Virus record (IMG/VR): IMGVR_UViG_643348545_000015
Location: 1 to 37,765 of that record
Origin: a virus
Taxonomy: Duplodnaviria > Heunggongvirae > Uroviricota > Caudoviricetes
Length of the DNA: 37,765 bases
Strand: one strand, 5' to 3'
Shown one piece after another: positions 1 through 37,765 of the stretch. Positions within the stretch are counted from its first letter, which is position 1; every line of letters begins with the position of its first letter. The notes beneath the pieces were generated by a model. That model saw only the letters and a program-made list of their open reading frames with translations, was not told the origin of the DNA and did not search any database. Both the position numbers and the translations under genes were made by a program.

Positions 1-483
1 ATGACGAAGAAAAAAGCACATAAACCTGGTTCAGCGACCATCGCGCTTAACAAGCGCGCCCGTCACGAATACTTTATCGAAGAAGAGTTCGAAGCGGGAC
101 TTGCCCTGCAAGGCTGGGAGGTTAAATCCCTGCGCGCAGGAAAAGCCAATATCAGCGACAGCTATGTCCTTCTGCGCGACGGAGAGGCATTTCTGTTTGG
201 CGCTAACATCACGCCAATGGCTGTGGCCTCCACGCATGTGGTGTGCGATCCTACCCGTACCCGCAAGTTACTTCTCAACCAGCGCGAACTGGACTCATTG
301 TACGGTCGCGTCAATCGAGAAGGCTATACCGTAGTGGCGCTCTCCCTGTACTGGAAAAATGCCTGGTGCAAAGTGAAAATCGGCGTCGCCAAAGGTAAGA
401 AACAGCACGATAAACGTTCAGATATCAAAGAACGCGAATGGCAGGTGGATAAAGCGCGTATCATGAAAAACGCCCACCGTTAA
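1..483 (+). CDS. smpB: SsrA-binding protein SmpB
   Basis: 160-aa [33 protein letters not shown]... recognisable as enterobacterial SmpB; sits directly upstream of the tmRNA gene. Confidence 0.95.
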
Positions 484-697
484 ACCTATATAAGCGATAC
501 TAATCAAATCCTCACCGCGCCTCCCTATCCGGTGGCGCGAATGAACATCTTATCGACTGTCAAATCTGACACAGATGTAGCCATCCCATTGCTTAATCGA
601 AAAAAAATCATACTATGCAGGCGCTAATTCCAGGATGATAACGCCTTTTGGGCTAGTCATGCTGCTCATAAATCTGGTATACTTACCGTTACACATT

Positions 698-1060
698 GGG
701 GCTGATTCTGGATTCGACGGGATTTGCGAAACCCAAGGTGCATGCCGAGGGGCGGTTGGCCTCGTAAAAAGCCGCAAAAAATAGTCGCAAACGACGAAAA
801 CTACGCTTTAGCAGCTTAATAACCTGCTTAGAGCCCTCTCTCCCTAGCCTCCGCTCTTAGGACGGGGATCAAGAGAGGTCAAACCCAAAAGAGATCGCGT
901 GGAAGCCCTGCCTGGGGTTGAAGCGTTAAAACTTAATCAGGCTAGTTTGTTAGTGGCGTGTCCGTCCGCAGCTGGCAAGCGAATGTAAAGACTGACTAAG
1001 CATGTAGTACCGAGGATGTAGGAATTTCGGACGCGGGTTCAACTCCCGCCAGCTCCACCA
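698..1060 (+). ncRNA. ssrA: tmRNA (SsrA), 363 nt
   Basis: Starts GGGGCTGATTCTGGATTCGACGGG, contains the tag reading frame GCAAACGACGAAAACTACGCTTTAGCAGCTTAA (ANDENYALAA*), ends with the tRNA-like acceptor ...GGTTCAACTCCCGCCAGCTCCACCA. Confidence 0.96.
1016..1060. repeat. attL core: 45-bp 3' end of ssrA, direct repeat of 36061-36105
   Basis: ATGTAGGAATTTCGGACGCGGGTTCAACTCCCGCCAGCTCCACCA is identical at both positions; flanking sequence diverges on both sides. Confidence 0.9.
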
Positions 1061-3562: not shown

Positions 3563-6500
3563 GCGTCGTATCCCCCCTGATCGCTGTAGTTACTCCTGGC
3601 TTTTGCCTTCAGCCTGCGTTCACGTTCATCAAGCTGGCGTGCCACCTCCCGCGCAATATCCTGCGCACTTTGTCCTGGCTGCGTCTGAATGATGATCTGC
3701 GTCGGTGCCTCAATCCGGTGAACGGGCGGCACAGTGGCTGCACGACTCACCATCGCTTCGCCGCCTTTCGCGGGAAGTGCCAAAGGATGCAACGGTGGAA
3801 GCTCTGCAGGCGCGGCAGCAACGCCCATCATTCCGGCAACAACGGCAGCCAGTGCAGCTGTATTTCTCCGGCTGGTCACATTTGCCGGGCCGTTAACAAT
3901 TTCCGGCCCGTTTTCACCGACGATGCCAAACTGCCCACGCGGGATATAGCCGCCGCTGTCATACATCCCCGCAAAGCCATATCCCCATGACGGAAAACCC
4001 CCCGATGGCATCATCACTTTACCGTCTGCATTCACCGTCGCAGGTTGCTGACGCGTCACTCTTTCCGGCAGTTTCGCCTTTGCAGCCTCTTTACTGACAA
4101 TGCCGAGTTTCTCCAGCAACCAGGAAACGCCGGATTTCAGGGAGTCCAGCGGATGCATGACCATATTCAGCCCTTCCGCCAGTGCCTCCCCGAATCGCCG
4201 CCCCATTGCCGCTGCACTCTGCAGTTCGGCAGAGGTCGACTTAACGGGCGTCAGCAGATCAGTAAACCAGCCCCACAGCGCCTGTACTTTGTCGCCAATC
4301 CACTGGAACACGGGCTTAAGCGGTTCGAATGCTGCACTGACGGGACCTGCCGCCGCTTTGAATCCTTCCACCACGCCACCAAGAAATGCGGTGATGGGTT
4401 GCCAGTATTTCCAGACAACCAGCGCCACGCCCGCCAGTGCAGTAACCACAAGACCTATCGGACTGAGCAGAGCACCTAACAGACCAGATACGGCATACAG
4501 GGCAACGCGCAGCATCGCCAGTGGACCAGATGCCAGTACTCGCAGCACCGTGCCTGCGGAGGCCAGTCCACCGCGCAGTACCGCCAGAGGATTCATAAAC
4601 ATCACAGCAACAGCACGTAAACCGGATAATCCAGACCGCAAAAGTGCAACCGGCGCACCTGCTACAGTTTTCAGGACATTTCCCGTCAGTGATGCCGTGC
4701 GGCGCAAAGACGACAACGGCGCAGTAAGTAAACCTGCGGCGTTGCCCGATGAAGCAAGCCCGCGTCGCAGCAGTGCAAGTGGTGCGCCAGCCAACCAGGA
4801 CAACGCGCTGCTGGTTCGCGTTACTGCTGCCGTAACGGAAGGTAACGTTTTGATACCCAGCACAGAGAATCCCAGACGGATGACTGCCAGCGGCCCCAGC
4901 ACAGCAGCCAACACCACAGCCAGGGTGCCGAGGCCCACAGTAACAGCAGCCACAACCGCGGCTACTTTCATCAGTGTGCCCGTCAGTTCAGGGTTAGCTT
5001 CCACCCAGCGACGCAACGCCCCCGTGATGCTTTTCACCGTGTACAGAATATCCATCAGCGGCTGGCGCAGCGTTTCGCCCAGGCTGCTGAAGGTGTTCTG
5101 CGCTCCGGTTTTGACCAACAACCACTGCGCAGAAAGTGAGTCCTTGTTAATGTCGGATTCTTTCTGCATCGAACCGAGCGCATCATTGCCCGCTGTCAGT
5201 TTTAGCTGGCGCTGCAGTTCCGGCAGGTTGTTTGCCAGTTTCGCCGCATCATCGCCAAACTCTTTACCAAACAACATGGTCATGGCAGACAGGCGCTTAT
5301 CCTGCGGCAGTGCGTTCACCTTCTCCAGTACGCGCTGGATAGTTCCCATCGCATCCTTCGTCATCTGCTTTTCAATCACTTCAGGATTGAGTTTCAGCAG
5401 ATTCATTCCTTCAAAGAAACTCTTGCTTTGCATGGTCGCAATGGACAATTCACGCACCATCGCGTTGGCAGCACTGGCAGCGACCTCCGGCGCAGCACCC
5501 AGTGTCAGGAAGGTGGAACCCAGCGCCGCCGCTTTACGATAATCCAGACGATCAGCCACACCGCCCAGGCGTTGCATGACATCAATGATGTCTGCCCCTT
5601 TCGACATAGCGTTATCATCCAGATAGTTCAGCGCATCACCGAGCTGTTCAATATTGCGGGTTGGTATTTTGTAGAGCTGGGCGATTTTCCCCAGACTTTC
5701 TGACAGTTCATCAGCTGGCAGCTCAAAGGCTGTTGCCGCCTTTGCTGCCGTACTGGCGAAGGCCAGCAGGTCACGTTTCTGGTCCTCCCAGCTGTCGTCA
5801 GGGTTTGCCACATTCATGCGCGCACCACCTTCAACCAGTGCGGCGAAGTCCACAGCACCGTTTTCCATTGGCAGCTGTTCACTGGCAGCTTTGATGGCAT
5901 CCTGCATTTCGTAAAAACGCGCAGTGCGGTTGCCATTATCGTCACGCAGACCATTGACCTGCTTTGCCACACCTTTCATGGCATCTTCCATGCTGGTATA
6001 GCTTTTTACCGCCGCCATCACTGGCGCGCCCATTGCCAGCCCTGCAGCCGTGGTGGTGGCTCCGGCTCCTGCGATGCGATCGCGCACTTCAAGCCGTCTT
6101 GAGTATTGTTCTCTGGCAGCGTTCATCCGTGCCTGTTGTTCACCCAGACGTTTAAGTGCTTTTTTCTGGCCCTCCAGTGCCTGACGAGTTTCTTCGGCAT
6201 TTTTCTTAAGTTCTCGCTGGGCACTACTGAGTTGTCTGGTATCAATCCCTGATTCTTTAAGTGCCTGACGTTGTCTCTGGACCGCCCCCAACAAGCCGTT
6301 ATAGGTCTGCTGAAGTTCCTGTACTCGTGTTTTGGCCTGACTGAATAACTTTGCCTGCGCGGCGGTTGGCCTGTTAGTGGCAGCAAATTGTGTGGCGAGT
6401 TTTGCCGCCTCTTCGCGGGCTGCGTTCAGGTTGTTGGCTGTTATGGCTAGTTGCGAGCGCGTCTTGCGAAATTCATCAATTCTGCCAGCCTGCTTATTCA

Positions 6501-6636
6501 GTTCTTTGAGGCTGTTTCGGGTATTCTGAATTGCGCCAGCCAGCTCTTTCGAACTGGCCTGTGCAGCACGGAATGGGCGGGTGAGTTTGTCAACCGCATT
6601 AAGAATGACCTGCAGGCGCAGGTTATTATCACTCAT
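3559..6636 (-). CDS. T: Tail tape-measure protein T
   Basis: 1025-aa Ala/Gly/Leu-rich ORF with coiled-coil N-terminus, following the E/E' frameshift pair. Confidence 0.9.
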   Translation of the reverse strand: MSDNNLRLQVILNAVDKLTRPFRAAQASSKELAGAIQNTRNSLKELNKQAGRIDEFRKTRSQLAITANNLNAAREEAAKLATQFAATNRPTAAQAKLFSQAKTRVQELQQTYNGLLGAVQRQRQALKESGIDTRQLSSAQRELKKNAEETRQALEGQKKALKRLGEQQARMNAAREQYSRRLEVRDRIAGAGATTTAAGLAMGAPVMAAVKSYTSMEDAMKGVAKQVNGLRDDNGNRTARFYEMQDAIKAASEQLPMENGAVDFAALVEGGARMNVANPDDSWEDQKRDLLAFASTAAKAATAFELPADELSESLGKIAQLYKIPTRNIEQLGDALNYLDDNAMSKGADIIDVMQRLGGVADRLDYRKAAALGSTFLTLGAAPEVAASAANAMVRELSIATMQSKSFFEGMNLLKLNPEVIEKQMTKDAMGTIQRVLEKVNALPQDKRLSAMTMLFGKEFGDDAAKLANNLPELQRQLKLTAGNDALGSMQKESDINKDSLSAQWLLVKTGAQNTFSSLGETLRQPLMDILYTVKSITGALRRWVEANPELTGTLMKVAAVVAAVTVGLGTLAVVLAAVLGPLAVIRLGFSVLGIKTLPSVTAAVTRTSSALSWLAGAPLALLRRGLASSGNAAGLLTAPLSSLRRTASLTGNVLKTVAGAPVALLRSGLSGLRAVAVMFMNPLAVLRGGLASAGTVLRVLASGPLAMLRVALYAVSGLLGALLSPIGLVVTALAGVALVVWKYWQPITAFLGGVVEGFKAAAGPVSAAFEPLKPVFQWIGDKVQALWGWFTDLLTPVKSTSAELQSAAAMGRRFGEALAEGLNMVMHPLDSLKSGVSWLLEKLGIVSKEAAKAKLPERVTRQQPATVNADGKVMMPSGGFPSWGYGFAGMYDSGGYIPRGQFGIVGENGPEIVNGPANVTSRRNTAALAAVVAGMMGVAAAPAELPPLHPLALPAKGGEAMVSRAATVPPVHRIEAPTQIIIQTQPGQSAQDIAREVARQLDERERRLKAKARSNYSDQGGYDA

Positions 6637-7065
6637 CGTTGGCCCCGCTTCTCTGAATCGCTTTATACCGCCATTCCAGCACTTCGGTCAGCGGCATAAC
6701 GTCAGTAACGGATGGCGGCCAGTGAAAGATGGTGGCGATATCAGCCACCAGATCGTCAACCGTCAGGCTGTCGGTAAACCGGCAAGCACCGACTTCTTCA
6801 ACAAAAAAGTGACAACCTCAACCGACATGGCAGTGAGATCTGCCGGGTCCATCTCTGCAATTTCCTGTGCAGTCAGTGCCGGACTGGAGATGCGGGGGAT
6901 CACGGTCATCATCGCGTTCACATCCATATCCATAATGGCCTGCAGGCGTGTACCGCGCAGCGCACCGGACTGCGGTTTACGCAGCACAATTTCGGTGATT
7001 TCTGTTTTACCGCGCTTGATGGGGGTATCCAGTTGAATAGTCTTTTCAGTCTGCTTATCGCTCAT
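6629..7065 (-). CDS. E: Tail assembly chaperone E and E+E' (programmed -1 frameshift)
   Basis: The 0 frame ends at 6763 (100 aa). Slippery heptamer T_TTT_TTG on the minus strand (6803-6809) lets the -1 frame continue to a TGA at 6629-6631 that overlaps the T start codon. Confidence 0.8.
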
Positions 7066-7119
7066 TTTGCTGTCCTGTAAATTGGGTTCTGGCGCGGTAT
7101 CCCGCGCCGTTCAGATACA

Positions 7120-7635
7120 TCAGAGGCCGAGGGCGTTGCGGTGCGCTTCCATCAGGTCCACACCGTCCACAATTTCCACCATGTTGATAAGGTCCACTTC
7201 ATAGAGCACCTCACCATTTATAGTCAGCTTCGCGTAGCTGTTGGTACTGGTCACTTTGGTGGTGTTGCTTTCGCCCGTCTTCCACTCGCCGGAATCCACT
7301 TCTTTGTGACGTCCACGCACCACAAGCTCCACGGCCTGCACTTCCCCGGTATCGTCACGCTGGATAGAGCCGGTAAAGCGCAACTGGATACCATCCACCG
7401 TGGCTTTGCCCATCTGCTTAAACAGCAGCAGTTCAGTACCACCAATGGAAAATTCCGTATCCAGTGCGCCGTCATCCAGCCCCAGATCCACATCCACTGC
7501 ACCCGGCATTCCGCCGCCGCGATACTTCTCATATTTGCGGGTAAATTTCGGCAGCGTCAGCGACTCAACGATCCCCTGCCAGTTGTTCCCGTCATTAAAC
7601 AGGTTCAGGTGTTTTAATTTGCGTGGTAAAGCCAT
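7120..7635 (-). CDS. FII: Tail tube protein FII
   Basis: 171 aa MALPRKLKHLNLFNDGNNWQG...; order FI-FII-E-T as in P2. Confidence 0.9.
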   Translation of the reverse strand: MALPRKLKHLNLFNDGNNWQGIVESLTLPKFTRKYEKYRGGGMPGAVDVDLGLDDGALDTEFSIGGTELLLFKQMGKATVDGIQLRFTGSIQRDDTGEVQAVELVVRGRHKEVDSGEWKTGESNTTKVTSTNSYAKLTINGEVLYEVDLINMVEIVDGVDLMEAHRNALGL

Positions 7636-7644
7636 GTTGTCCCC

Positions 7645-8817
7645 TTACGCGCTGACCTGGCTGGAGAAATTAACCAGGTACTGATCGGTGATGCGCTGAC
7701 GCAGCATCAGGTTTTCAAGTGGCGGCACTGGCGTGTAGTCGTAGTCGATGGTGAGTTTTCCGGCTTTCAGCGTGTCTTTGTCGTTCACCGACTCATCCAG
7801 CCAGCAATCACCACCAATGAGATAGCCCTGACTGACCAGGCTGCGCATTTTGGCGCGGATACCCTCGATAATGTCGCGGGCCAGCGACGGATTCAGCGGT
7901 TTATCCACCGCCCACATGTGCGCTTCTGCCATCGTGTCCGTCAGCACCTGCGCCGTGCGGGTGTAGTTTTCGAAGGCAAAGAGCGGGTCATCACTCAGGC
8001 AGCGGGAACCCCAGAAGCGAAAACCGTCTTTGCGGATAAGGGTGGTGACGTCGTTCTGGTTCAGCAGTCCCGCATCGGTTGCCGGGTCCTGCAGATCCCA
8101 GAACACATCAGCAGAAATTCCGGTGACACCGTTAACGCCCACGTTGGACAGGCTTTTGTGCCATCCGGTCTGCTCGTCAATTTTGGCGCGCAGACCAAGC
8201 GCACGGGCGGTGGCATAAGCCGTTGCTTCGGCATTCAGCACCGTGTCCCAGCCAGTAAAGTCGGGCCAGATCAGCATTCCTTCACGCTGACTGAAGTTTT
8301 CACGGTAAGTGATTGCTTCCTGCACCGTCTTGCAACCATACGCTGACAGGTAAGCAAATCCACGCAGGCTTTGCGCCACACTCAGCAACTCAGTAGCTAC
8401 CGCCTTCGTGTCGTGACCTGGCACGCCGAGAATGCGCGGTTTAACGCCGAGCTGTGACTGGGCAGATAACAGGGCTTTCATGCCTGTTTTTTTACCTTCA
8501 GCGGTCACTGCGCCGATGATATTGGTCGTGGTTTCTTCTTCCGTTTCACCCTGCGGCACACGCACAACAACGGTCACGGGTTTTGCCTGGTCAGCGATGG
8601 CATCCAGCGAACGAGCCAGCGTGCCTGACTCACCCGCTTTACCGCTGGCAGTCAGCACATCAGTGATCAGCACGGGTTTATTAAGAGGAAACATTTTTGC
8701 ATCGGCATCATCGCCCGTGCAGACCATACCCACGATGGCGGTGCTCACCGTGGTAATGGATCGGGTGCCTTCGTTGACTTCAACAACGCGCACCCCGTGG
8801 TGGTAATCCTGAGCCAT
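7645..8817 (-). CDS. FI: Contractile tail sheath protein FI
   Basis: 390 aa [24 protein letters not shown]...; RBS AGGAGG upstream. Confidence 0.92.
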
Positions 8818-8959: not shown

Positions 8960-9526
8960 TCAGGGAGATTTATTGTTCTTATTTGCCGGAAATTTTCGAT
9001 AAATGGTAGAAACGCCTACATCAAAAATCAGTGCAATACGCTGTCTTGATTCTCCGTCCTCGAGTAAACGCCCAATCTGTGCCCACTGTTCGCTGGTCAA
9101 CTTAGGACGGCGTCCACCTACTCTGCCTTTAGCACGAGCTGCAGCCAGCCCCGCCCTGGTACGTTCAACTATCAGTTCGCGTTCCATTTCAGCCAGGGCA
9201 CCCATGACATGAAAAAAGAAACGGCCCATTGGGGTGCTGGTATCAATACTGTCAGTCAGGCTTCGGAAATTCACGCCACGCTGGCGCAGCTCTTCTATCA
9301 GCGTAACAAGATGCCGCATACTGCGCCCCAGTCTGTCCAGCTTCCAGACAACCAGCGTGTCTCCTGCCGATAGTGTCCTGAGCAGCTTTTTCAGCCCCGG
9401 TCTGTCGGACTTGGTGCCACTGATTTTATCCTCAAAAATCCGCTCACATCCCGCACAGTTCAGTGCATTGCGTTGCAAATCGGTGTTCTGGTCATTTGTT
9501 GACACGCGTACATAGCCAATAAGCAT
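8960..9526 (-). CDS. Serine-recombinase DNA invertase (Hin/Gin/Cin/Pin family)
   Basis: MLIGYVRVSTNDQNTDLQRNAL...GDTLVVWKLDRLGRSMRHLV... with C-terminal HTH; start taken at the ATG 6 nt after GGGGG (the ORF track begins 2 codons earlier at 9532). Confidence 0.9.
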   Translation of the reverse strand: MLIGYVRVSTNDQNTDLQRNALNCAGCERIFEDKISGTKSDRPGLKKLLRTLSAGDTLVVWKLDRLGRSMRHLVTLIEELRQRGVNFRSLTDSIDTSTPMGRFFFHVMGALAEMERELIVERTRAGLAAARAKGRVGGRRPKLTSEQWAQIGRLLEDGESRQRIALIFDVGVSTIYRKFPANKNNKSP

Positions 9527-9581
9527 GATCATCCCCCTGAATAAAAACCGGAGATGATGCCAGTTAGCCGTTATCTCTGCA

Positions 9582-23753: not shown

Positions 23754-23787
23754 GTTTAAACTGGCTGTCGGAACAGCCAGTTTAAAC
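23754..23787. terminator. Bidirectional hairpin between Q and the convergent cargo operon
   Basis: Perfect 15-bp stem GTTTAAACTGGCTGT / ACAGCCAGTTTAAAC with loop CGGA. Confidence 0.55.
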
Positions 23788-24630
23788 ACCGGCACCAATG
23801 AAATCGCCATATGAATCTTCTTCAAGGCTGATGTATTCTACCCTCCATTGATCCATCCGCCTCAATGCATACAGGGAGAAATGAGTATCAGCAACAGCTA
23901 TGCACGTATTCAATTCTATAAGTTCTGAATGCCCCAAGGTTGGATCACCATAAAACTTATAAAACAAAGCCTTTAGATCAGAACATGTTTGTTCAGCCGC
24001 TCTTCTGGCATCGGGGCCACCTTCAGTTGCATCATAAACAACATTGATAGAAAGCTCATATGGTATGCCTTCCTCAAGATCGTTAAATCTTTCTTCGCCC
24101 AAATCGAAAAAAACTCCGATCAAATGCTCTGCGTTTGTGGCGATAATATCCGCAACTTCTTTTTCGAAAATAAACTTTTTATCCTCGTCGTAAGCCCGCA
24201 AGCGCTCTTCAAACGAGTTAGGAAACGCTGGACGACCATACTTAGCAGCTAACCATTGCTTAAGAGCTTGTTTCTCTTCTGTGCTAATGGAGAATGCTGG
24301 ATCGTTTTCCTCACAACAGAAAGCTTCTTTAGGAATGATGACTTTCCTTTCATGCCGGAGCTCTACTGCATTCTTCTTCGCACTTTCTGGGTTTTCAAAA
24401 CATAGATCGAGTATTCTCGGATGCTTAGCTCTTTTCATCCTGCTTGACCCCTTTTTCAAGGGGCCAAACATCAGTTCCACGTTTTTTTCTGAATTACTCT
24501 GTAAATCACAATCATGCGTTATAACTACAACTTTATGGTTCGTTTCATCAGGCTGCAGAATTCCAAGTGAAACGGCATCATCATGTTTAAGTACATGCCC
24601 CTGACGCCATGATGTTCCTCGTACCAACAT
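23782..24630 (-). CDS. Hypothetical protein, cargo operon gene 3
   Basis: 282 aa; ATG 9 nt after the gene 2 stop; no motif I can assign by eye; AT-rich codon usage. Confidence 0.6.
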   Translation of the reverse strand: MLVRGTSWRQGHVLKHDDAVSLGILQPDETNHKVVVITHDCDLQSNSEKNVELMFGPLKKGSSRMKRAKHPRILDLCFENPESAKKNAVELRHERKVIIPKEAFCCEENDPAFSISTEEKQALKQWLAAKYGRPAFPNSFEERLRAYDEDKKFIFEKEVADIIATNAEHLIGVFFDLGEERFNDLEEGIPYELSINVVYDATEGGPDARRAAEQTCSDLKALFYKFYGDPTLGHSELIELNTCIAVADTHFSLYALRRMDQWRVEYISLEEDSYGDFIGAGV

Positions 24631-24639
24631 AAATGTGAT

Positions 24640-25302
24640 TTATTCCTCTACCGTTCCAGGAATTGAAATAGATGACTTCCAATCATCTGTCGGTTTCGCC
24701 TTGCTTGCTAAGTAATTGGCCGATTCAGCAGCAGCATTCATCGCTTTAGCTTCATCAATCAATACCTGAACTGCCCTATTCCAATCCTCACCTTCTTTTA
24801 CTACGTCCATTAATGACTTACCATTAAATGCTTTCATTTTCACCAATAGCTTCGCATCATGGAGTCCAGCTTTGGAAAAAGAGTCAGCGACATTACTAAG
24901 GTTGGTAATGAATTGCACTTTTGAAGCATCATCAGGCTGGTTCTCCCCTGACAACCATTTATAGAGAGCCTGCCGAGTTATCCCCAAATCCTTTGCCAGT
25001 TCTGACATTGATGGAGACAGCACTTCTCGAATATTAGCTAAATGTTGGGCAACATTCCTGACATCAACCTCAGGAGAAATTGCAGGCGTGTACGTTGATT
25101 CTATGGAATCAAATGCAAACTGAACCCTTGGCTGAACATACTGACGCCATTGCTTATAAGCATTTACAGGGTATGAAGCCCCCGTACCAACTAATAGTAA
25201 AGATGCGGCGACAGCAACAACACCTGATACACATGAGCTTGACTGCAAATTTGGAGAATATCGATCTACAGAGCCTATGCTTCCGGTGGGAATTGCATAC
25301 AT
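24640..25302 (-). CDS. Hypothetical protein with N-terminal hydrophobic helix and HTH motif, cargo operon gene 2
   Basis: Start MYAIPTG... 7 nt after GGAGGTGA; hydrophobic CVSGVVAVAASLLLVGTGASY; HTH-like SMSELAKDLGITRQALYKWLSGE. Confidence 0.6.
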   Translation of the reverse strand: MYAIPTGSIGSVDRYSPNLQSSSCVSGVVAVAASLLLVGTGASYPVNAYKQWRQYVQPRVQFAFDSIESTYTPAISPEVDVRNVAQHLANIREVLSPSMSELAKDLGITRQALYKWLSGENQPDDASKVQFITNLSNVADSFSKAGLHDAKLLVKMKAFNGKSLMDVVKEGEDWNRAVQVLIDEAKAMNAAAESANYLASKAKPTDDWKSSISIPGTVEE

Positions 25303-25321
25303 TTTAGTCACCTCCGTTGTT

Positions 25322-26131
25322 TCAGTGCCATTTAGTACGGGCAAAATCTGAAACCATGCCTTCAAATGCTTCTTTAACTTTACTATGCAACGAAAGAATC
25401 TGTTTTTCAATTAACTGCAAATCAGTTGACATGTTGCCTTCAACATAATGATCTGTATCAATTATTGCGTGCATACGATGCTCTGTGTTACTAAATCTCG
25501 GCAACGGCAGTAAACCATTAGGAATCATATCTGGCGGAAAACCTAGCTGACCATTCATCTTATGTATTCGTGAAACCATAAATCCATTAGGGATCAATGG
25601 CTCAACACATGTCTGATATACGGACTCTTGTATAGACTGTATTGGCGTCCATCCGAAATCAACACCATGAAGTTCCTTTACAAGATACTGCTCAATTGTT
25701 TCGCTTTTCTCAGGAAACACAGCATCCAAATATCGAAGCCCAATCCGACTTAACAGCGATGGCTTAGCAAATTCTAGAACTTTGCTCAGACCAAGTATCA
25801 ATGACGAGATGAAAGATACATGGTTATCATAATATGTTGTATGGAACGTAATGAAATCGTTGCCTAAAACAAAACCAGATCTTCTATCTGCATCAATCAT
25901 CAACCAACTTGTCACAGGCTCAAATGAATGTACCGGTGGCTCATTGGGGTTTTTTATTTCAAATTTCAACTGAGTTGTATTGGAAACCTCAAATAAAGGA
26001 AATCCCTCAACTCTTAGCGCATCTTGTATGTCTGGAACATACTTACTCATTGCAGCTATTGGAGTAAACTTTACCTGTACCAATGCATAGTAAACGGGCG
26101 CATTGGACATACGTTCGCTGTTAGTACTCAT
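25322..26131 (-). CDS. Hypothetical protein, cargo operon gene 1
   Basis: 269 aa, RBS AAGGAGG before the ATG. The N-terminal pattern NAPVYYALVQVKF is vaguely reminiscent (from memory, unverified) of the uncharacterised TIGR04255 family. Confidence 0.6.
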   Translation of the reverse strand: MSTNSERMSNAPVYYALVQVKFTPIAAMSKYVPDIQDALRVEGFPLFEVSNTTQLKFEIKNPNEPPVHSFEPVTSWLMIDADRRSGFVLGNDFITFHTTYYDNHVSFISSLILGLSKVLEFAKPSLLSRIGLRYLDAVFPEKSETIEQYLVKELHGVDFGWTPIQSIQESVYQTCVEPLIPNGFMVSRIHKMNGQLGFPPDMIPNGLLPLPRFSNTEHRMHAIIDTDHYVEGNMSTDLQLIEKQILSLHSKVKEAFEGMVSDFARTKWH

Positions 26132-26271
26132 GCCGCCCTCCTTGAAATTGTTTCATCTCATATCTCTTTATCTTACTAACTGTAGTTTACACATAGGTTG
26201 ACACTTTCTCCATCATTAAGTTCACTATGACATCAATAGCCAAAACTCTTACGTAATCGCTTCGGCGCGCG

Positions 26272-26290
26272 CTCGTATCCCCGCCACGCC
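26272..26290 (-). other. Candidate cos site (cohesive-end sequence)
   Basis: Minus strand reads GGCGTGGCGGGGATACGAG. The first 13 nt match my recollection of the P2/186 19-nt cohesive end (GGCG[A/T]GGCGGGGAAAGCA[C/T]); orientation puts Q on the correct side. Confidence 0.35.
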
Positions 26291-26494
26291 TGCCCGCTTT
26301 ATGTAGTGGTTTTCATGCACCTGCATGATCTACGCAAAAGCCCACCAGTTCTGGCGGGCCTTAGCAAAAACGATCCTCAAACGATCATGCGATCTCATGC
26401 GGCATAGACATGCACTACAGAGCTAACGCCTCGCAAGGGCTCGTTGTTCAACCTTGCTGACGCCAGAAACAAGTTCAGACGCCAGCAACGTTTC

Positions 26495-27080: not shown

Positions 27081-27377
27081 TTAATACAGGTTTCGCCACT
27101 TATCATCTTCCTGCAAACGCTGGTTCCGATAGAAGATACGCAGGCCTGCTCCTGACGAAATACTGCCGCCGCGAAGGAGTAAATCGACCTCTTTCTCGCT
27201 ACCATCAAACCCTCTGGACTTCAGCTCATACACGAGCTGCTGTCGCTGATGGTCTGTAATTCGCTGTTTGTAGTCTTTACACCGTTTCGGTTTAACCAGG
27301 TGTAACCTTGCTGCCAGTTCCCGGCGTTCTTTTTTGCTCATACTGTGCAGGTAATCGTGCAACTCCTTGTCATCCAT
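27081..27377 (-). CDS. Hypothetical charged protein downstream of A
   Basis: ORF-track frame 27081-27437 opens at a TTG overlapping the A stop; first ATG at 27377 ([13 protein letters not shown]...). No clear RBS, so the call is uncertain. Confidence 0.35.
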
Positions 27378-27433
27378 GCGGGTGATATCCGTTCTGGTAT
27401 CCCCATCAGCTGATTTGTCTTTCCCTTGTTGGT

Positions 27434-29521
27434 TCAAATTTTCAGCAAGGGGACAGTTATTGCCACGAGTCCAAGGGGACAGTTATTGCCACGAGTCCAA
27501 GGGGCGCAAGCGCCCTGGTCGGCTGCCGCCTCCTGAACGTCAACGGCCTTACGAACCATTTTCCACTTCACGGCATGAGTGCAGATTTTGCCCTCTGCAA
27601 TGGGTGACCAGATGCCATAAATACGAATGCCGTGATCGCCATAGGCGGTCGGCTCTTCGTTGATTTCATAAGCGGTTCTGATGAGGTGATATTTACGGGG
27701 AACCAGTACGCCGCCCTGCTTCATGATGTAGGTGGCAAAACAACCAGCATCAGCTGCAGCCAGAATGGCATCAAGGCGCGGGTTATCCAGTACCGGCGCA
27801 CCTGCTTTTTTGTCACCCTGTTGCCTTGCCGCCTGACCAGCCAGCAATCGCAGTTCACGGTAAGCCTGACGCCCCGGAATGCCAAAGAAGCGGAATTGCT
27901 GAACACGATGCAGAGACGCCCAGGCATTAACGTATTCAGCGTTATCACGCAGAGATTTACCCGTTTCCTTGCTGATCTCGCCAGCCAGACCACGCCCGTC
28001 AATGTTCTTACTGATGTATTTCGCGATGTAGCTAGTCGGCGTTCCTTTGCGCGGGTTTATCAGCTCAGACTTAAAGCGTGGCCCCGTGTTATTACCCAGC
28101 TCCTCGCGGTCTTCACGGATAGCAAACTTACGCAACAATGCAGTAATGGCGCGGCGGTCTTTTTTGCGCATGAAACACAACAGGTGCCAGTGAACTGTGC
28201 CGTCATGATGCGGCTCAGCCACCCGCACGCCATACCAGCGCAACCCGGCTTTGTGCATCGCCTTACGAAATGCAGCAAACATGCCGACCAGATAATCACT
28301 GCTTTGTCTTACCGTCGCATTTGTCCAAGTCGGGTTGGGCCTACCGTTATTTAGCGTGGAATGGAAACGTGACGGACAGGTGATGGTGTAGAAAACGGCG
28401 CAGTCACCGCGCATTTCCGCGATAAGCTCCAGACCTTTAACACAGGCCATCATCTCATTGCGGCGATGCGCAGGGTTGCTGCTGCTGGCGTTTACCACAT
28501 CCTCCATGTCCAGCGTGTCGCCGTCTTCGTTCACCAGTTCATGAGAACGGAAAAACTCCAGCGACTTACGGCGCTGCTCACGTTTATGCATCACGGCTTC
28601 ATAGCTGACATAGGGAGATGCTTTTTTGCTGACCAGGCAAACAGCACGCAACTGCTCTTCCCGCCATTCGCAACGCATCTTCCACAATTTCCGATACCAC
28701 CAGTCGGCGCACAGCATACGCGCCAGCGACCCCGGAATGAGTTCATAGGGCACGGGTTTACGGCGGTTTCTTTTCCGGCGGAGTTGCTCAAACGCAGGCG
28801 GTATGACATCCAGTCGCAGGGTTTCCGCCGCCACCTTTTCCCATGTCTTGCGGATTTCTTCTGGCTTAACGTCATCGGTGGCATACAAATCGCCACAAGC
28901 GGCATCAAGGCACATGCTCATATGCGCAGCTACCAGGGTGGACAGGCGTTTCACCTGATCCTGACTCATTTCAGGCAGGATCAGCAGACCGTCCAGCCCT
29001 TCATGGCTTGCCATAAAGCGAAAAGAAGTGGATAGCTGACTGTCGCGTACATGCTCCAGTCGTTCCAGACATGGCTTAATCGTCTCACGCAAATAGCGGG
29101 AATAAGCCTTTGGCCTGCCCAGGCTGCTGAAGTATTCAATACGTTGCATCAGCGGCTTGCTGATATGGGAAGGCTGGGCGTTAACGTCCGCCAGAATGAC
29201 CATGCCCGGATTAAAACGCTGCTGCTCATGCGCCAGCTTTGCCCGGCTAATGAGCTTATCCTGCTCCATTTCGCGCTGGACAGGATCACGTGATTCATTA
29301 AAGAAATAACGCTCCCATACCTGATCACTCAGAGCCTCGCGGCGCAGTTGTTCCTGCTCGTTATCGGTAGCGTACAGAGTGATCAGGTTTGAAAGCGCAG
29401 AAACCGGCGCAACTTCCGCCGGGTCCAGATAAGGGTTAATGGCCTTTTTCGGGCTGTTCCATGAGAATGCTGCGGCGACCTCGTTAAAGCCGCTGCAGTT
29501 GTTCATATCAGCATGGCTCAT
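27434..29521 (-). CDS. A: Rolling-circle replication initiator endonuclease A
   Basis: 695 aa with HUH-type motif VHWHLLCF and tyrosine motif YIAKYISK. Confidence 0.9.
27446..27504. repeat. Tandem direct repeat, 2.3 copies of a 26-bp unit
   Basis: CAAGGGGACAGTTATTGCCACGAGTC at 27446-27471 and 27472-27497, plus CAAGGGG; lies in the last ~25 codons of A. Confidence 0.9.
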
Positions 29522-30375
29522 GCACGCACTCCGTACACGGCAGAACTATCCACGCCACGCGAAGGATCAAATCCCACCCAGCAGCGCGGCCCGGAAACAG
29601 CGATGATTTCTGTTGCAGATTTACTCTCACCAGCTGCTACACCGATGCTGCGTTTTGCCTTGATGTAGTGGTGAGTAAAATTGCGATACAGCGAACGGAT
29701 CAGGGATGTATCACTGTTAGAAACAATGACCGGATGTCCTTCTGATGACCGATGTTCAAGAACGGATGCCAGGTGATACTGGTCATCTTCAGTGAAACCA
29801 TCAGTGTGATAGCCGGAAAACGTACCGTCATACGGCGGATCGCAATACACCACATCCCCCACCTGCAGCATCGCCAGCGTTTCATCAAAGCTTGCGCAGA
29901 TAAACGTTGCTCGCTGGGCTTTTTCTGCAAATGTGCGAAGTTCTTTTTCAGGGAAATACGGATTTTTATAATTACCGTAGGGAATGTTGAAATGCCCGCT
30001 CTTGTTATAGCGACATAAACCACGGTAACCGTGACGATTGAGATACAGGAAATATACCGCTTTCATGAAATCAGTAATTTCAGTGGAGTAATTAAACTCC
30101 TGCCTTATGTTGTAATAAGCCACCTCCCTGTTTGCGATCTCAAATAAAACTCTGGCGCGAGATATAAACGATTCACAATCAGCGGCAACCTTTTTATAGA
30201 GGTTGATTAAATCAGGATTAATATCCGCAACCAGATAGCTGGGGTAATCCGTCTCCATCATCACAGCACAAGAACCCGCGAAAGGTTCAACCAGTCGCGG
30301 GCCTGCAGGAAGGTGTTTTTTCAGTTCGGACATAATGGCGGTTTTATTACCCGCCCATTTCAGGATGGTGCTCAT
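29518..30375 (-). CDS. DNA adenine methyltransferase (Dam-like)
   Basis: Start [11 protein letters not shown]... after AGGAGGTG; DPPY motif ([10 protein letters not shown]); stop overlaps the A start. Confidence 0.85.
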
Positions 30376-30550
30376 ACAGCACCTCCTGCAATAACATATC
30401 CTAAAGCTTCTAATGGGGTTAATGAGCGAATTGATAGCATCACCCATTGTTCTGAAACTGCCATGACGTCATTAACCGGAAGCACATGAGAGATAACCGC
30501 GGCCCATTCCCTACCCGTAAATACGCCATGCTTCCGGTAATGACTCCAAC

Positions 30551-31054
30551 TTACTGATAGTGTTTTATGTTCAGATAATGCCCGATGACCTTGTCATGCA
30601 GCTCCACCGATTTTGAGAACGACAGTGACTTCCGTCCCAGCCTTGCCAGATGTTGTCTCAGATTCAGATTATGTCGCTCAATGCGCTGAGTGTAACGCTT
30701 GCTGATAACGTGCAGCTTTCCCTTCAGGCGTGATTCATACAGCGGCCAGCCATCCGTCATCCATACCACGACCTCAAAGGCCGACAGCAGGCTCAGAAGA
30801 CGCTCCAGTGTGGCCAGAGTGCGTTCACCGAAGACGTGCGCCACAACAGTCCTCCGTATCCTGTCATACGCGTAAAACAGCCAGCGCTGACGTGATTTAG
30901 CACCGACGTAGCCCCACTGTTCGTCCATTTCAGCGCAGACAATCACATCACTGCCCGGTTGTATGCGCGAGGTTACCGACTGCGGCCTGAGTTTTTTAAG
31001 TGACGTAAAACCGTGTTGAGGCCAACGCCCATAATGCGTGCACTGGCGCGACAT
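30551..31054 (-). CDS. insB: IS1 InsB frame (transposase made as InsAB' by -1 frameshift)
   Basis: ...[44 protein letters not shown]... open frame overlapping the 3' end of insA. Confidence 0.9.
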
Positions 31055-31248
31055 CCGACGCCATTCATGGCCATATCAATGATTTTCTGGTGCGTACCGG
31101 GCTGAGAGGCGGTGTAAGTGAACTGTAGTTGCCATGTTTTACGGCAATGAGAGCAGAGATAGCGCTGATGTCCGGCAGTGCTTTTGCCGTTACGCACCAC
31201 GCCTTCAGTAGCGGAGCAGGAAGGACATCTGATGGAAATGGAAGCCAC
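30973..31248 (-). CDS. insA: IS1 InsA
   Basis: 91 aa [40 protein letters not shown]... Confidence 0.93.
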
Positions 31249-31447
31249 GCAAGCACCTTAAAATCACCATCATACACTAAATCAGTAAGTTGGCAGCATT
31301 ACCCATGCTTCCATTCGCAAAGAGAAAGAACATCACCAACTTTATAGCCACGATCGTCTTTACGAAGTTCAGCCGTCTTTTGACCTGCAACCACAGCGTT
31401 GAAATACTTAGGTGCAATTTTTAATTGATGGATACGCACAGCCCCTG

Positions 31448-31675
31448 TCATACAGCACCTCCGTTGTAATGTTTGCCTTTCAGCTCTGCGATTTCCTGGC
31501 AAGTAATGCAAAGCTGCACACCCGGAATGGCGCGGCGTCGTGCTGGCGGAATTGGCGCTTCACACTCAATGCAAAGCACGCGAGACACGCCCGGTGTTTT
31601 GGCACGAGCAGCACGGATATGGCGCTGGCGTTCTTCTTCAACGCGCTGCTGTACGAGATCCATTGCATCAGCCAT
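31448..31675 (-). CDS. TraR/DksA-type C4 zinc-finger protein
   Basis: 75 aa with [26 protein letters not shown]; stop overlaps the ASCH start. Confidence 0.7.
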
Positions 31676-33602: not shown

Positions 33603-33631
33603 ACATTACGATCTTGATTCAAGATTGTCAA
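33603..33631 (-). promoter_or_regulatory. Candidate lytic promoter pR with operator palindrome in the spacer
   Basis: On the minus strand: -35 TTGACA (33626-33631), 17-bp spacer containing palindrome ATCTTGA-T-TCAAGAT (33611-33625), -10 TAATGT (33603-33608). Confidence 0.55.
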
Positions 33632-33644
33632 ATGGAGATTACCA

Positions 33645-34277
33645 ATGTTAAACATCAGAATGGGTTCCGATACGGGAGGTAAGGCAGCTATTGAGAGGCT
33701 GCTTGAGGCTTATGGATTCACAACTAAGCAGGCATTAAGCGAGCACCTGAATGTCTCAAAAAGTACTATGGCAAACAGAGTGTTACGTGACAGTTTTCCT
33801 GCTGACTGGATAATTCAGTGTGCACTAGAAACCGGTGTTTCGTTACTTTGGTTAGCCACTGGACAGGGAAGCATGAAAGAAGGATACGAGCCTGAGAAAA
33901 GATCTCATAACGAGAACAAACAAGCAATTAAACCGTTATCCAAACTCATAACTCCATCTATTCCTAAAGGAACCTTGGAAAATGGACAACTCAGTATTGA
34001 TGAAGAGATTTTCCTAGACCACAGCATATTACCTGCAGATTATGAAGAATCGATGTTCTTAGAAACCCCTACTGATTGTTATCTCATCGATAAATCAGTT
34101 AAACAAGTCAGCAATGGATTCTGGCTTATCAATATTGATGGAATGATTATTATTGCAAAAATCATGCGGATTCCCGGCAATAAGATTGTAGTAAATCAAG
34201 ATGAAGCGTCTTTCGAGTGCTCTGCTGATGATGTGGAAGTTATTGGGCGTGCAGTCAAAGTAATAAAGAGTATCTAA
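33645..34277 (+). CDS. cI: Immunity repressor CI (186-type)
   Basis: 210 aa with N-terminal HTH (...LSEHLNVSKSTMANRVLRDSF...CALETGVSLLWLATGQG); I see no LexA-like Ser-Lys autocleavage motif; directly upstream of int. Confidence 0.8.
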   Translation: MLNIRMGSDTGGKAAIERLLEAYGFTTKQALSEHLNVSKSTMANRVLRDSFPADWIIQCALETGVSLLWLATGQGSMKEGYEPEKRSHNENKQAIKPLSKLITPSIPKGTLENGQLSIDEEIFLDHSILPADYEESMFLETPTDCYLIDKSVKQVSNGFWLINIDGMIIIAKIMRIPGNKIVVNQDEASFECSADDVEVIGRAVKVIKSI

Positions 34278-34279
34278 AC

Positions 34280-35296
34280 ATGACTGTCAGAAAACAGCCA
34301 AACGGTAAATGGTTGTGCGAGTGCTATCCCAATGGACGCAATGGCAAGCGCGTGCGTAAGCAATTTGCTACGAAAGGCGAAGCCATTGCTTTTGAAAGCT
34401 TCACAATGGAAGAAGTGAACAAAAAACCATGGCTGGGGGAAAAGGAAGATCGGCGACACCTATCAGAATTAATTGAGCAGTGGTATTCCCTGTATGGTCA
34501 AACACTCGCAGACCCCAAGCGCCTCATAGCGAAACTTAGAATTATCTGTAATGGTCTAGGCGATCCCATCGCTTCAGAACTGACAGCCGGTGACTTTACG
34601 AAATACCGCGAAGCACGGTTAAAAGGTGAAGTACGAAATGAAGATGGCACGTTTATGTCGCCCGTTAAGCCCCGCACGGTAAACCTTGAACAGCGCAATC
34701 TATCATCTGTTTTTGGTACACTGAAAAAGCTGGGCCACTGGTCAGCCCCCAACCCGCTTGCTGGGCTGCCAACATTTAAAATTGCTGAGAGTGAATTGGC
34801 GTTCCTGACCCCGGAAGAAATTAAACGTCTGCTGGATGCCTGCGCCGATTCTCAAAGCTCCAGCCTGCTTTTGATTGCAAAAATATGCCTGGCCACCGGC
34901 GCACGCTGGAGCGAAGCCGAAAACCTGCAGAGTCATCAGGTATCAAAATACCGTATCACTTATACCAAGACCAAAGGCAAGAAAAACCGAACTGTGCCTA
35001 TTTCTAAGGATTTATATGAAGAACTGCCTAAGAATAGGGGGAAGTTATTCACCCCATGCAGAAAAGCCTTTGAGCGTGCAGTAAAGCGGGCTGGTATCGA
35101 TCTGCCAGAGGGTCAATGTACTCACGTTCTGCGTCATACATTCGCTAGCCATTTTATGATGAATGGTGGAAACATATTGGTTTTGCGGGATATCCTAGGA
35201 CATTCAGATATAAAAATGACCATGGTCTATGCACACTTCGCCCCAGACCATTTAGAAGATGCCGTAACTAAAAATCCTTTATTTAATTTGAGGTAA
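34280..35296 (+). CDS. int: Tyrosine integrase (P2 Int family)
   Basis: 338 aa with C-terminal catalytic region ...HVLRHTFASHFMMNGGNILVLRDILGHSDIKMTMVYAHF... Confidence 0.93.
   Translation: MTVRKQPNGKWLCECYPNGRNGKRVRKQFATKGEAIAFESFTMEEVNKKPWLGEKEDRRHLSELIEQWYSLYGQTLADPKRLIAKLRIICNGLGDPIASELTAGDFTKYREARLKGEVRNEDGTFMSPVKPRTVNLEQRNLSSVFGTLKKLGHWSAPNPLAGLPTFKIAESELAFLTPEEIKRLLDACADSQSSSLLLIAKICLATGARWSEAENLQSHQVSKYRITYTKTKGKKNRTVPISKDLYEELPKNRGKLFTPCRKAFERAVKRAGIDLPEGQCTHVLRHTFASHFMMNGGNILVLRDILGHSDIKMTMVYAHFAPDHLEDAVTKNPLFNLR

Positions 35297-36688: not shown

Positions 36689-37765
<1,077 letters not shown>

Follow-up and report, generated by a model that had tools for sequence, protein, structure and literature searches.

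Why does a P2-like prophage, whose hosts already have Dam, carry a Dam-like methyltransferase gene of its own, and does the place of that gene directly before the replication gene A point to a function in replication? We addressed these questions for a prophage inserted at ssrA, contained in a stretch of 37,765 nt (the window, IMG/VR record IMGVR_UViG_643348545_000015) in which an Rfam scan found tmRNA only. We consider it fairly likely that the gene is the orphan Dam of P2-like, Felsduovirus-type prophages, made early in the lytic cycle and completing the methylation of phage DNA. The window's own copy sits in a prophage that has apparently been crippled twice, by an IS1 insertion and by a frameshift in A.

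The gene encodes a predicted GATC-specific Dam

The dam ORF (29518..30375, minus strand; 858 nt) would encode an intact 285-aa N6-adenine DNA methyltransferase of the D12 class (alpha type), predicted to be GATC-specific. It starts with an ATG at 30375, 6 nt downstream of a putative Shine-Dalgarno sequence (AGGAGG, 30382..30387, minus strand) that is part of a 15-nt junction, GGAGGTGCTGTATGA; this junction also forms the joint between the zinc-finger gene and the DUF3850 gene described below. A longer reading of 309 aa from an ATG at 30447 is unlikely because the relatives begin at the 858-nt position.

The product matches the complete Pfam profile PF02086 for D12-class N6-adenine methyltransferases (profile positions 1-253 of 253, E=1e-76, 258.5 bits with a cut-off of 22 bits) and the NCBIfam model TIGR00571 'dam' (322.7 bits, cut-off 114.85 bits). 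The catalytic motif IV, DPPY, corresponds to residues 179-182 and aligns with D181-Y184 of E. coli Dam. The adenine methyltransferase with a DPPY motif that a sequence-only reading of this DNA had reported is thus confirmed. Motif I (FxGxG) reads F32-A-G34-S-C36 with a cysteine replacing the second glycine, and the acidic residue D54 of E. coli Dam is kept as D51. Because the Dam of Salmonella phage RE-2010 has the same motif I sequence, we regard the cysteine as characteristic of the family and not as damage. The score against the host-Dam equivalog model NF008152 / PRK10904 is 288.9 bits, under the cut-off of 441 bits. Judged by these scores, the product is a member of the Dam family and no orthologue of chromosomal dam. 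Comparison with the RE-2010 gene gives a dN/dS of 0.13 (15 synonymous and 7 non-synonymous changes), a ratio indicating that dam is under purifying selection.

To E. coli Dam (PDB 2g1p) the product is 46% identical over 265 aligned positions. Two positions that contact DNA in the E. coli enzyme are changed (N120 to R and R137 to N) and the 5-residue loop following DPPY is deleted. In the crystal structure of E. coli Dam with DNA, residues Y119, L122, R124 and P134 reportedly read GATC or hold the DNA; all four are kept, together with K9, R95, R116, N126, N132, Y138 and DPPY. R95, R116, N126 and N132 of E. coli Dam contact DNA phosphates, and the K9A mutation relaxes its GATC specificity (PMC6567924). 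Since the GATC-contact residues are kept, GATC specificity is very likely, while the preference for flanking bases may have shifted given the changes at N120 and R137 and the lost loop.

No restriction partner is found

It is conceivable that dam belongs to a restriction-modification system as its modification component and that the matching nuclease escaped notice, but we hold this to be extremely improbable. D12-class methylases are also known from type II systems (DpnII, for example) and the second PADLOC model for the product is a type II MTase (287 bits), but the top model, 'orphan methyltransferase' (oMTase), scores above it with 371 bits (E=8.9e-112). In agreement with the earlier remark that no restriction partner is nearby, no restriction enzyme gene was recognised among the ORFs scanned, which represent part of the window's ORFs. 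On one side of dam lie a DksA/TraR-type zinc-finger gene and a DUF3850 gene interrupted by IS1; on the other side lies A. In all relatives the flanking genes (zinc-finger gene or DUF3850 gene on one side and A on the other) are conserved phage genes, and cargo ORFs elsewhere in the prophage gave no nuclease match in Pfam or PADLOC.

dam occupies a variable position before gene A

The stop codon of dam (TGA, 29520..29518) and the start codon of A (ATG, 29521..29519) share an ATGA (29518..29521, minus strand), and a GGAG inside dam is found 7 nt upstream of the ATG of A. The gene is therefore directly upstream of A with a 4-nt overlap, as first described. This ATGA or GTGA overlap between dam and A is present in 45 of the 76 related loci that carry dam. 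Where an extra gene lies between dam and A (15 loci), the stop codon of dam is still within an ATGA/GTGA-type junction.

Genes unrelated to dam overlap A in the same position in other phages, by 4 nt in phage 186 (orf84, PAPS-reductase-like) and by 11 nt in phage P2 (Orf83, DUF5405). The phage 186 record states that 'translation to end of orf84 appears necessary for translation of A protein'. Judging by these arrangements, the overlap is a general feature of A expression and is not specific to dam; it says nothing on any link between methylation and replication. Of the translational coupling proposed for dam and A, the overlap architecture stands, but a tie specific to dam does not.

The fixed upstream neighbour of this variable position is the zinc-finger gene (31448..31675, minus strand; PF01258, E=3.1e-11), found in the same position in RE-2010, P2 and 186. 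Between it and A, relatives have Dam, either alone or accompanied by a PAPS-reductase-like gene or by a C5-cytosine methylase, or else they have no gene there; in the dam-less relatives the zinc-finger gene leads straight into A. Among 90 sequences (the window and 89 loci), 12 have a DUF3850 gene between the zinc-finger gene and dam. The site preceding A acts like a slot for exchangeable cargo and is often occupied by DNA-modification genes, which fits a protective role for phage DNA.

The origin of replication is not an evident target

The origin lies inside A, and Dam could methylate it to regulate nicking or re-initiation. The fact that dam adjoins A and would be translated together with it is in favour of such control, as is a GATC at 27634, about 130 bp upstream of the ori core, that is kept in the three sequences compared (window, RE-2010 and CP019275). 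We located the origin via the annotated nick site of P2: a 26-nt ori core, CCCCTTGGACTCGTGGCAATAACTGT, is homologous to the annotated P2 ori nick region, GCGCCTCGGAGTCCTGTCAATAACTGT. This core is invariant in 80 unbiased relatives and contains no GATC, the nearest GATC being about 130 bp away. The kilobase around the origin has 2 GATCs compared to a window mean of 3.2 per kb, and a second nearby GATC of RE-2010 and CP019275 is missing from the window. Furthermore, P2 and 186 have homologous A proteins and origins and no phage dam. Because the invariant core is without GATC, the earlier suggestion that the enzyme may methylate the origin finds no support; we rejected it and consider control of the origin by Dam very improbable.

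A conserved GATC pair is found beside cos

The window contains 121 GATC sites, with an observed/expected ratio of 0.70. Other 4-nt palindromes have ratios of 0.57-1.01, which bracket this value, so there is no avoidance specific to GATC and no signal of avoidance or enrichment in the prophage.

A candidate Dam target is nevertheless found next to cos. The cos core region (26271..26321, minus strand), identified by alignment with the annotated P2 cosR, is homologous to the right cohesive end of P2. About 75-95 bp from this core are two GATCs 11 bp apart (GCATGATC-N7-GATCG, 26372..26386, minus strand). Across 79 distinct cos regions, either GATC of the pair occurs in 97.5%, whereas the 7 nt between them vary. 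The window and its close relatives have two more GATCs in the same 130 bp, and the dam-less phages P2 and 186 have no GATC at the homologous positions.

P1 Dam has a demonstrated packaging role at the pac site. By analogy, the phage Dam might act on the cos-side pair, whose sites are spaced by one helical turn, and in some lineages on additional GATCs, with the methylation state gating the binding of terminase or SeqA. The conservation of the pair and the lack of GATCs at the homologous positions of P2 and 186 are consistent with this idea, and the GATC cluster at first looked promising as a feature tracking dam carriage. It was downgraded since 8 dam-less close relatives keep the pair, 7 of them with both sites; thus the pair does not track phage dam. 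In addition, TGCATG repeats near the pair, which contain no GATC, are equally conserved, so the GATCs may be a mere part of a protein-binding site. Taken together, we judge packaging control unlikely. Quite unlikely, too, is the fuller scenario for Felsduovirus-type phages, in which Dam would ensure full methylation of the pair in the burst and terminase (or SeqA) would time packaging by methylation. If true, this would give a cos phage an epigenetic switch resembling P1 pac, and the pair offers a tangible test point for the purpose of the phage Dam in this group.

The window's prophage carries an IS1 and a frameshifted A

The operon of dam contains a complete IS1 of 768 bp (30536..31303, minus strand), 160 bp upstream of the gene. 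The IS1 has inverted repeats and contains insA and insB (Pfam InsA and IS1 transposase domains) in the direction of the phage early operon. The element is flanked by a 9-bp target-site duplication, GGAAGCATG, with the upstream copy at 31304..31312 and the downstream copy at 30527..30535 (both minus strand). The insertion splits a DUF3850/ASCH-like gene into a 5' part (31304..31451, minus strand) and a 3' part (30372..30535, minus strand) whose stop codon overlaps the ATG of dam (ATGA). The split gene was recognised by alignment to the intact 303-bp gene of strain 2012EL-2448, which matches PF12961 (E=1.1e-23); the otherwise identical prophage of that strain is without IS1. The IS1 junction was found in 0 of 5426 complete E. 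coli genomes and is absent from the GTDB representative genomes. Polarity of IS1 insertions is textbook knowledge, and the window's dam, while intact, is probably silenced, cut off by IS1 from the early promoter.

A different outcome can be envisaged in which the prophage Dam is expressed in the lysogen, here through read-out from IS1, and alters GATC methylation, gene expression or the mutation rate of the host. IS1 lies upstream of dam in the same orientation, a promoter-like hexamer pair inside it (30696..30668) faces dam, and effects of prophage Dam on host phenotypes have been speculated on in papers. However, promoter and terminator scans around IS1 and dam gave counts at chance level (7 promoter-like matches compared to 5.2 expected). 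The gene is deep in an early lytic operon, has no promoter of its own and is chained by codon overlaps to the genes upstream, and in E. coli strains with Dam homologues the methylation of host GATC sites already reaches about 99.9%. Such lysogenic conversion is therefore improbable.

The second lesion affects gene A, the rolling-circle replication initiator. Its N-terminal part (27434..29521, minus strand; Phage_GPA, E=6e-128) ends after 695 aa as the result of a frameshift: it is 99% identical to the 804-aa A of RE-2010 over residues 1-684 and then diverges. The reading frame is shifted because the 26-bp ori core is duplicated in tandem (27453..27504, minus strand), as seen in the alignment with RE-2010 and CP019275. 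Intact relatives have one copy, and the core is single-copy in 80 of 80 unbiased relatives. The orphaned C-terminal part of A (118 aa; 27081..27437, minus strand) continues in the original frame, and the two parts meet in a TTGA in which its TTG and the new TGA stop of the N-terminal part overlap. Because the extra copy of the internal origin puts A out of frame, the prophage is probably defective in replication. None of the GTDB representatives has the duplication junction. We also observed that the ori duplication recurs in other contigs.

Proposed expression and role of the phage Dam

A putative early promoter of the dam operon (TTGACA, 17 nt, TAATGT; 33603..33631, minus strand) was assigned from sequence and alignment, judging by where it lies with respect to the CI and Apl/Cox-like genes; a consensus promoter scan chose a weaker neighbouring match over it. 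The spacer of this promoter contains a GATC (33610) that is kept in the small number of immunity regions compared. It was dropped as a link to the phage dam, given that the Pe promoter of P2, a phage without dam, likewise has a GATC in its spacer.

We propose that the CI repressor would hold the early lytic operon off in the lysogen and that Dam would be produced along with A after induction or infection. Stop/start codon overlaps chain the genes of the operon, so that ribosomes ending dam would begin A. According to bioRxiv 10.1101/2020.06.22.160242, host Dam becomes limiting on high-copy DNA, and phage Dam serves anti-restriction. The phage enzyme would supplement that of the host on the high-copy phage DNA, leaving the approximately 120 GATC sites of each progeny genome fully methylated. 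DNA in this state may withstand enzymes that cut unmethylated GATC and may evade MutH and SeqA, whose substrate is hemimethylated DNA. In general terms, the most plausible role of dam is to protect or mark the DNA of the phage. Since the hosts already have Dam, and since P2, 186 and 8 close relatives do without such a gene, any benefit must be conditional.

Prevalence and comparison with known systems

The gene as such adds nothing new: dam is well known, numerous entries for phages and bacteria already list it under routine annotation, and it has matches in 1241 of 5426 complete E. coli genomes, roughly one in four. A 100% identical copy is found in six complete E. coli genomes, and the gene annotated as WP_000104159.1 in E. 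coli 2012EL-2448 shows the same identity. In the literature searched we found no experimental study of a Felsduovirus-type Dam, where reviews and general statements on phage Dam were the only coverage, and no methylation or expression data on the window's dam or near-identical relatives.

Phage-borne orphan GATC methylases are widely documented. The Dams of P1, of T4 and T2 and of Stx phages (M.EcoVT2Dam), as well as the Dam beside retron Ec67 on a P2-like prophage, are likewise phage-borne and orphan, but they are distant or unrelated in sequence and are found in other genomic contexts. T4 Dam is a detectable sequence relative of the window's protein (E=4.7e-18). A function in packaging has been demonstrated for P1 Dam, whereas for the window's dam it is hypothetical. 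With the chromosomal Dam of E. coli (PDB 2g1p, 4gol) the product has in common the D12 fold family, DPPY and the residues contacting GATC and phosphates. It differs by G39 to C in motif I, by the N120 and R137 replacements and by the 5-residue deletion, and its gene is phage-borne and part of a lytic operon.

The closest counterparts are the other Felsduovirus-type Dams. The annotated genes of RE-2010 (gp10, YP_007003503) and Klebsiella phage 4LV2017 are 97-98% identical to dam and both are found in the order zinc-finger gene, dam and A. Together with WP_000104159.1 they span 97-100% identity and have the same length of 858 nt, the 4-nt overlaps and the position between the zinc-finger gene and A. 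Compared to RE-2010 and 4LV2017, the window is distinguished by a DUF3850 gene between the zinc-finger gene and dam, by the IS1 that splits it and by the frameshifted A.

An adenine methyltransferase gene overlapping A

Reading of the sequence gives an intact 858-nt ORF, dam, at 29518..30375 on the minus strand, encoding 285 aa and starting at ATG 30375 with AGGAGG six nt upstream. In profile searches its product matches PF02086 (D12-class N6-adenine methyltransferase) over the full length (E=1e-76) and scores 322.7 bits against TIGR00571, the NCBIfam Dam model (cut-off 114.85), while with 288.9 bits it stays below the 441 cut-off of the chromosomal-Dam equivalog model. DPPY occupies residues 179-182. 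The next gene, A, matches the Phage_GPA replication initiator profile of Pfam (E=6e-128); the dam TGA (29520..29518) overlaps its ATG (29521..29519), and GGAG sits 7 nt upstream of that ATG. The sequence-only reading had described a DPPY-motif adenine methyltransferase sharing 4 nt with A, and these data confirm it in every detail.

Phage dam genes of this kind are already known. At the DNA level dam shares 97-98 % identity with genes annotated in Salmonella phage RE-2010, in Klebsiella phage 4LV2017 and in about 40 more phage records, and tblastn finds relatives of the protein in 473 phage records. Gene order and 4-nt overlaps in RE-2010 (zinc finger 4790..5017, methyltransferase 5014..5871, A 5868..8282) are identical to those in the window, and a Klebsiella paper gives the same gene row for a Fels-2-like prophage. 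When complete E. coli genomes were searched, 1241 of 5426 had a match to a query made of dam with short flanks. Six complete genomes are 100 % identical to it except for its 10 IS1 bases, and there the gene carries the annotation 'DNA adenine methylase'.

Predicted specificity and role

The phage protein is 46 % identical to the E. coli Dam of PDB 2g1p. It keeps K9, D54, R95, R116, Y119, L122, R124, N126, N132, P134, Y138 and DPPY, and differs at N120 (R), R137 (N) and the second motif I glycine (C) and by the loss of the five-residue loop after DPPY. Crystal-structure work on E. coli Dam reportedly identified Y119, L122, R124 and P134 as base contacts. R95, R116, N126 and N132 contact phosphates, and a K9A mutant gains methylation of non-GATC sites (PMC6567924). 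Of the changes that separate dam from its RE-2010 counterpart, 15 are synonymous and 7 non-synonymous (dN/dS = 0.13). From sequence comparison, we predict that the phage Dam very likely methylates GATC.

A single P2-like prophage, integrated at the 3′ end of ssrA, makes up essentially the whole window. Its flanks (1..1060 and 36788..37765) hold smpB (1..483) followed by the tmRNA gene ssrA (698..1060) and, on the far side beyond the integrase and CI-type repressor genes (33645..35296), csiD. The minus-strand early operon runs Apl/Cox-like, CII, DUF5347, DUF2732, DksA/TraR zinc finger, DUF3850, dam and A, with a putative early promoter (TTGACA-17 nt-TAATGT) at 33603..33631. The spacer of this promoter holds a GATC adjoining the inverted repeat ATCTTGA-A-TCAAGAT; a GATC is equally placed in CP019275, a relative of different immunity type, and in the Pe spacer of P2, which has no dam.

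Because it lies in a CI-controlled early operon, dam would be made only after induction or infection, alongside the replication initiator. The prophage has 121 GATC sites, at an observed/expected ratio of 0.70 versus 0.57-1.01 for other palindromes, so that there is no specific avoidance. The best-supported mechanism is that phage Dam supplements host Dam, which would leave progeny genomes fully methylated. Full methylation could benefit the phage by protecting its DNA from enzymes that cleave unmethylated GATC or, alternatively, by evading MutH and SeqA, whose target is hemimethylated DNA. The earlier interpretation thus finds partial support; of its two suggested roles, a protective phage Dam is consistent with our view of its function.

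GATC sites near the origin and beside cos

The second suggested role, methylation of the origin, finds no support. The ori nick is annotated inside A in the P2 record, and the homologous sequence in the window is GCGCCCCTTGGACTCGTGGCAATAACTGT, compared with GCGCCTCGGAGTCCTGTCAATAACTGT in P2. The 26-nt ori core, invariant among 80 unbiased relatives, contains no GATC; the closest one is about 130 bp away, and a second GATC near ori in RE-2010 and CP019275 is absent from the window.

Homology to the P2 right end places the cos core at 26271..26321. Upstream of it, a stretch of about 65 bp contains four GATCs, at 26327, 26372, 26383 and 26391 (region 26327..26394). They include a pair 11 bp apart, GCATGATC-N7-GATCG. 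Among 79 distinct related cos regions, each site of the pair is conserved in 97.5 %, with a variable spacer between the two. It is conceivable that this pair is a packaging signal read by Dam, and its absence from the dam-less phages P2 and 186 would fit. However, close relatives without dam keep the pair, and we regard such a signal as quite improbable. Alternatively the pair could simply belong to a protein-binding site.

Three cargo genes (23782..26131) separate cos from the portal gene. Their products are a TIGR04255-family protein, an HTH regulator and an unknown protein of 282 aa, and neither Pfam nor the PADLOC defence models give a significant match. The three may form an as yet uncharacterised module for accessory or defence functions; a paper on retron Ec67 places the insertion of that element in the same position, between cos and the packaging gene. 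Elsewhere, a Hin/Gin-type serine invertase gene (8960..9532) adjoins the tail-fibre region, which suggests an invertible host-range segment.

Damage around dam

The DUF3850/ASCH-like gene is split, 160 bp upstream of dam, by a complete IS1 (768 bp, 30536..31303) in the orientation of the operon. A perfect 9-bp target duplication, GGAAGCATG, flanks the element, the whole spanning 30527..31312. In the otherwise identical prophage of E. coli 2012EL-2448 the DUF3850 gene is intact (303 bp), and the insertion was found neither in the 5426 complete E. coli genomes nor in any GTDB representative genome. IS1 insertions are classically polar, and therefore the early promoter probably drives little expression of dam and A.

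In A itself the 26-bp ori core is duplicated in tandem (27453..27504), which shifts the frame, so that the product has 695 aa and not 804. In the wild-type sequence CCCCTTG flanks a 19-nt segment as a 7-bp direct repeat, offering a substrate for slippage. Four IMG/VR contigs, differing in their flanking SNPs, share the duplication junction, and one has three copies; the 80 unbiased relatives all lack it. This distribution suggests that such duplications disable these prophages rarely but repeatedly. The new TGA stop shares 27434..27437 (TTGA) with a TTG at the head of the 118-aa C-terminal remainder, which keeps the old frame; A, though split, may still be translated. Given the IS1 insertion and the A frameshift, the prophage is likely replication-defective and dam an intact passenger.

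Exchangeable cargo before A

The comparison drew on 80 viral contigs whose A relatives show 77-99 % identity; together with earlier loci and the window itself they yielded 76 dam carriers. The ATGA/GTGA overlap of dam with A is found in 45 of the 76. An extra gene intervenes in another 15, where the dam stop still lies in an ATGA/GTGA-type junction. Occupants before A comprise Dam alone or Dam followed by a PAPS-reductase-like protein, a C5-cytosine DNA methylase or unknown proteins of 139-285 aa. Among relatives whose upstream sequence is long enough, eight lack dam, and in these the zinc-finger gene leads directly into A.

The DUF3850 gene, present in 12 of 90 sequences (89 loci plus the window), is likewise a cassette. 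One 15-nt junction, GGAGGTGCTGTATGA, consisting of a ribosome-binding site and overlapping stop and start, bounds it on both sides (30372..30390 and 31448..31466), and in phages lacking the gene a single copy joins the zinc-finger gene to dam. GGAGGTGCTGTATGA has the appearance of a boundary at which recombination exchanges cassettes.

Known phages show the same arrangement with other genes. In 186, orf84 (PAPS-reductase-like) precedes A with a 4-nt overlap, and the record notes that translation of A protein appears to need translation through the end of orf84; in P2, Orf83 (DUF5405) overlaps A by 11 nt. Taken together with the varied or absent occupants in relatives, these comparisons argue that the overlap is a property of A and not of dam, and that the slot before A is exchangeable cargo, often DNA-modification genes, in an operon chained by overlapping codons.
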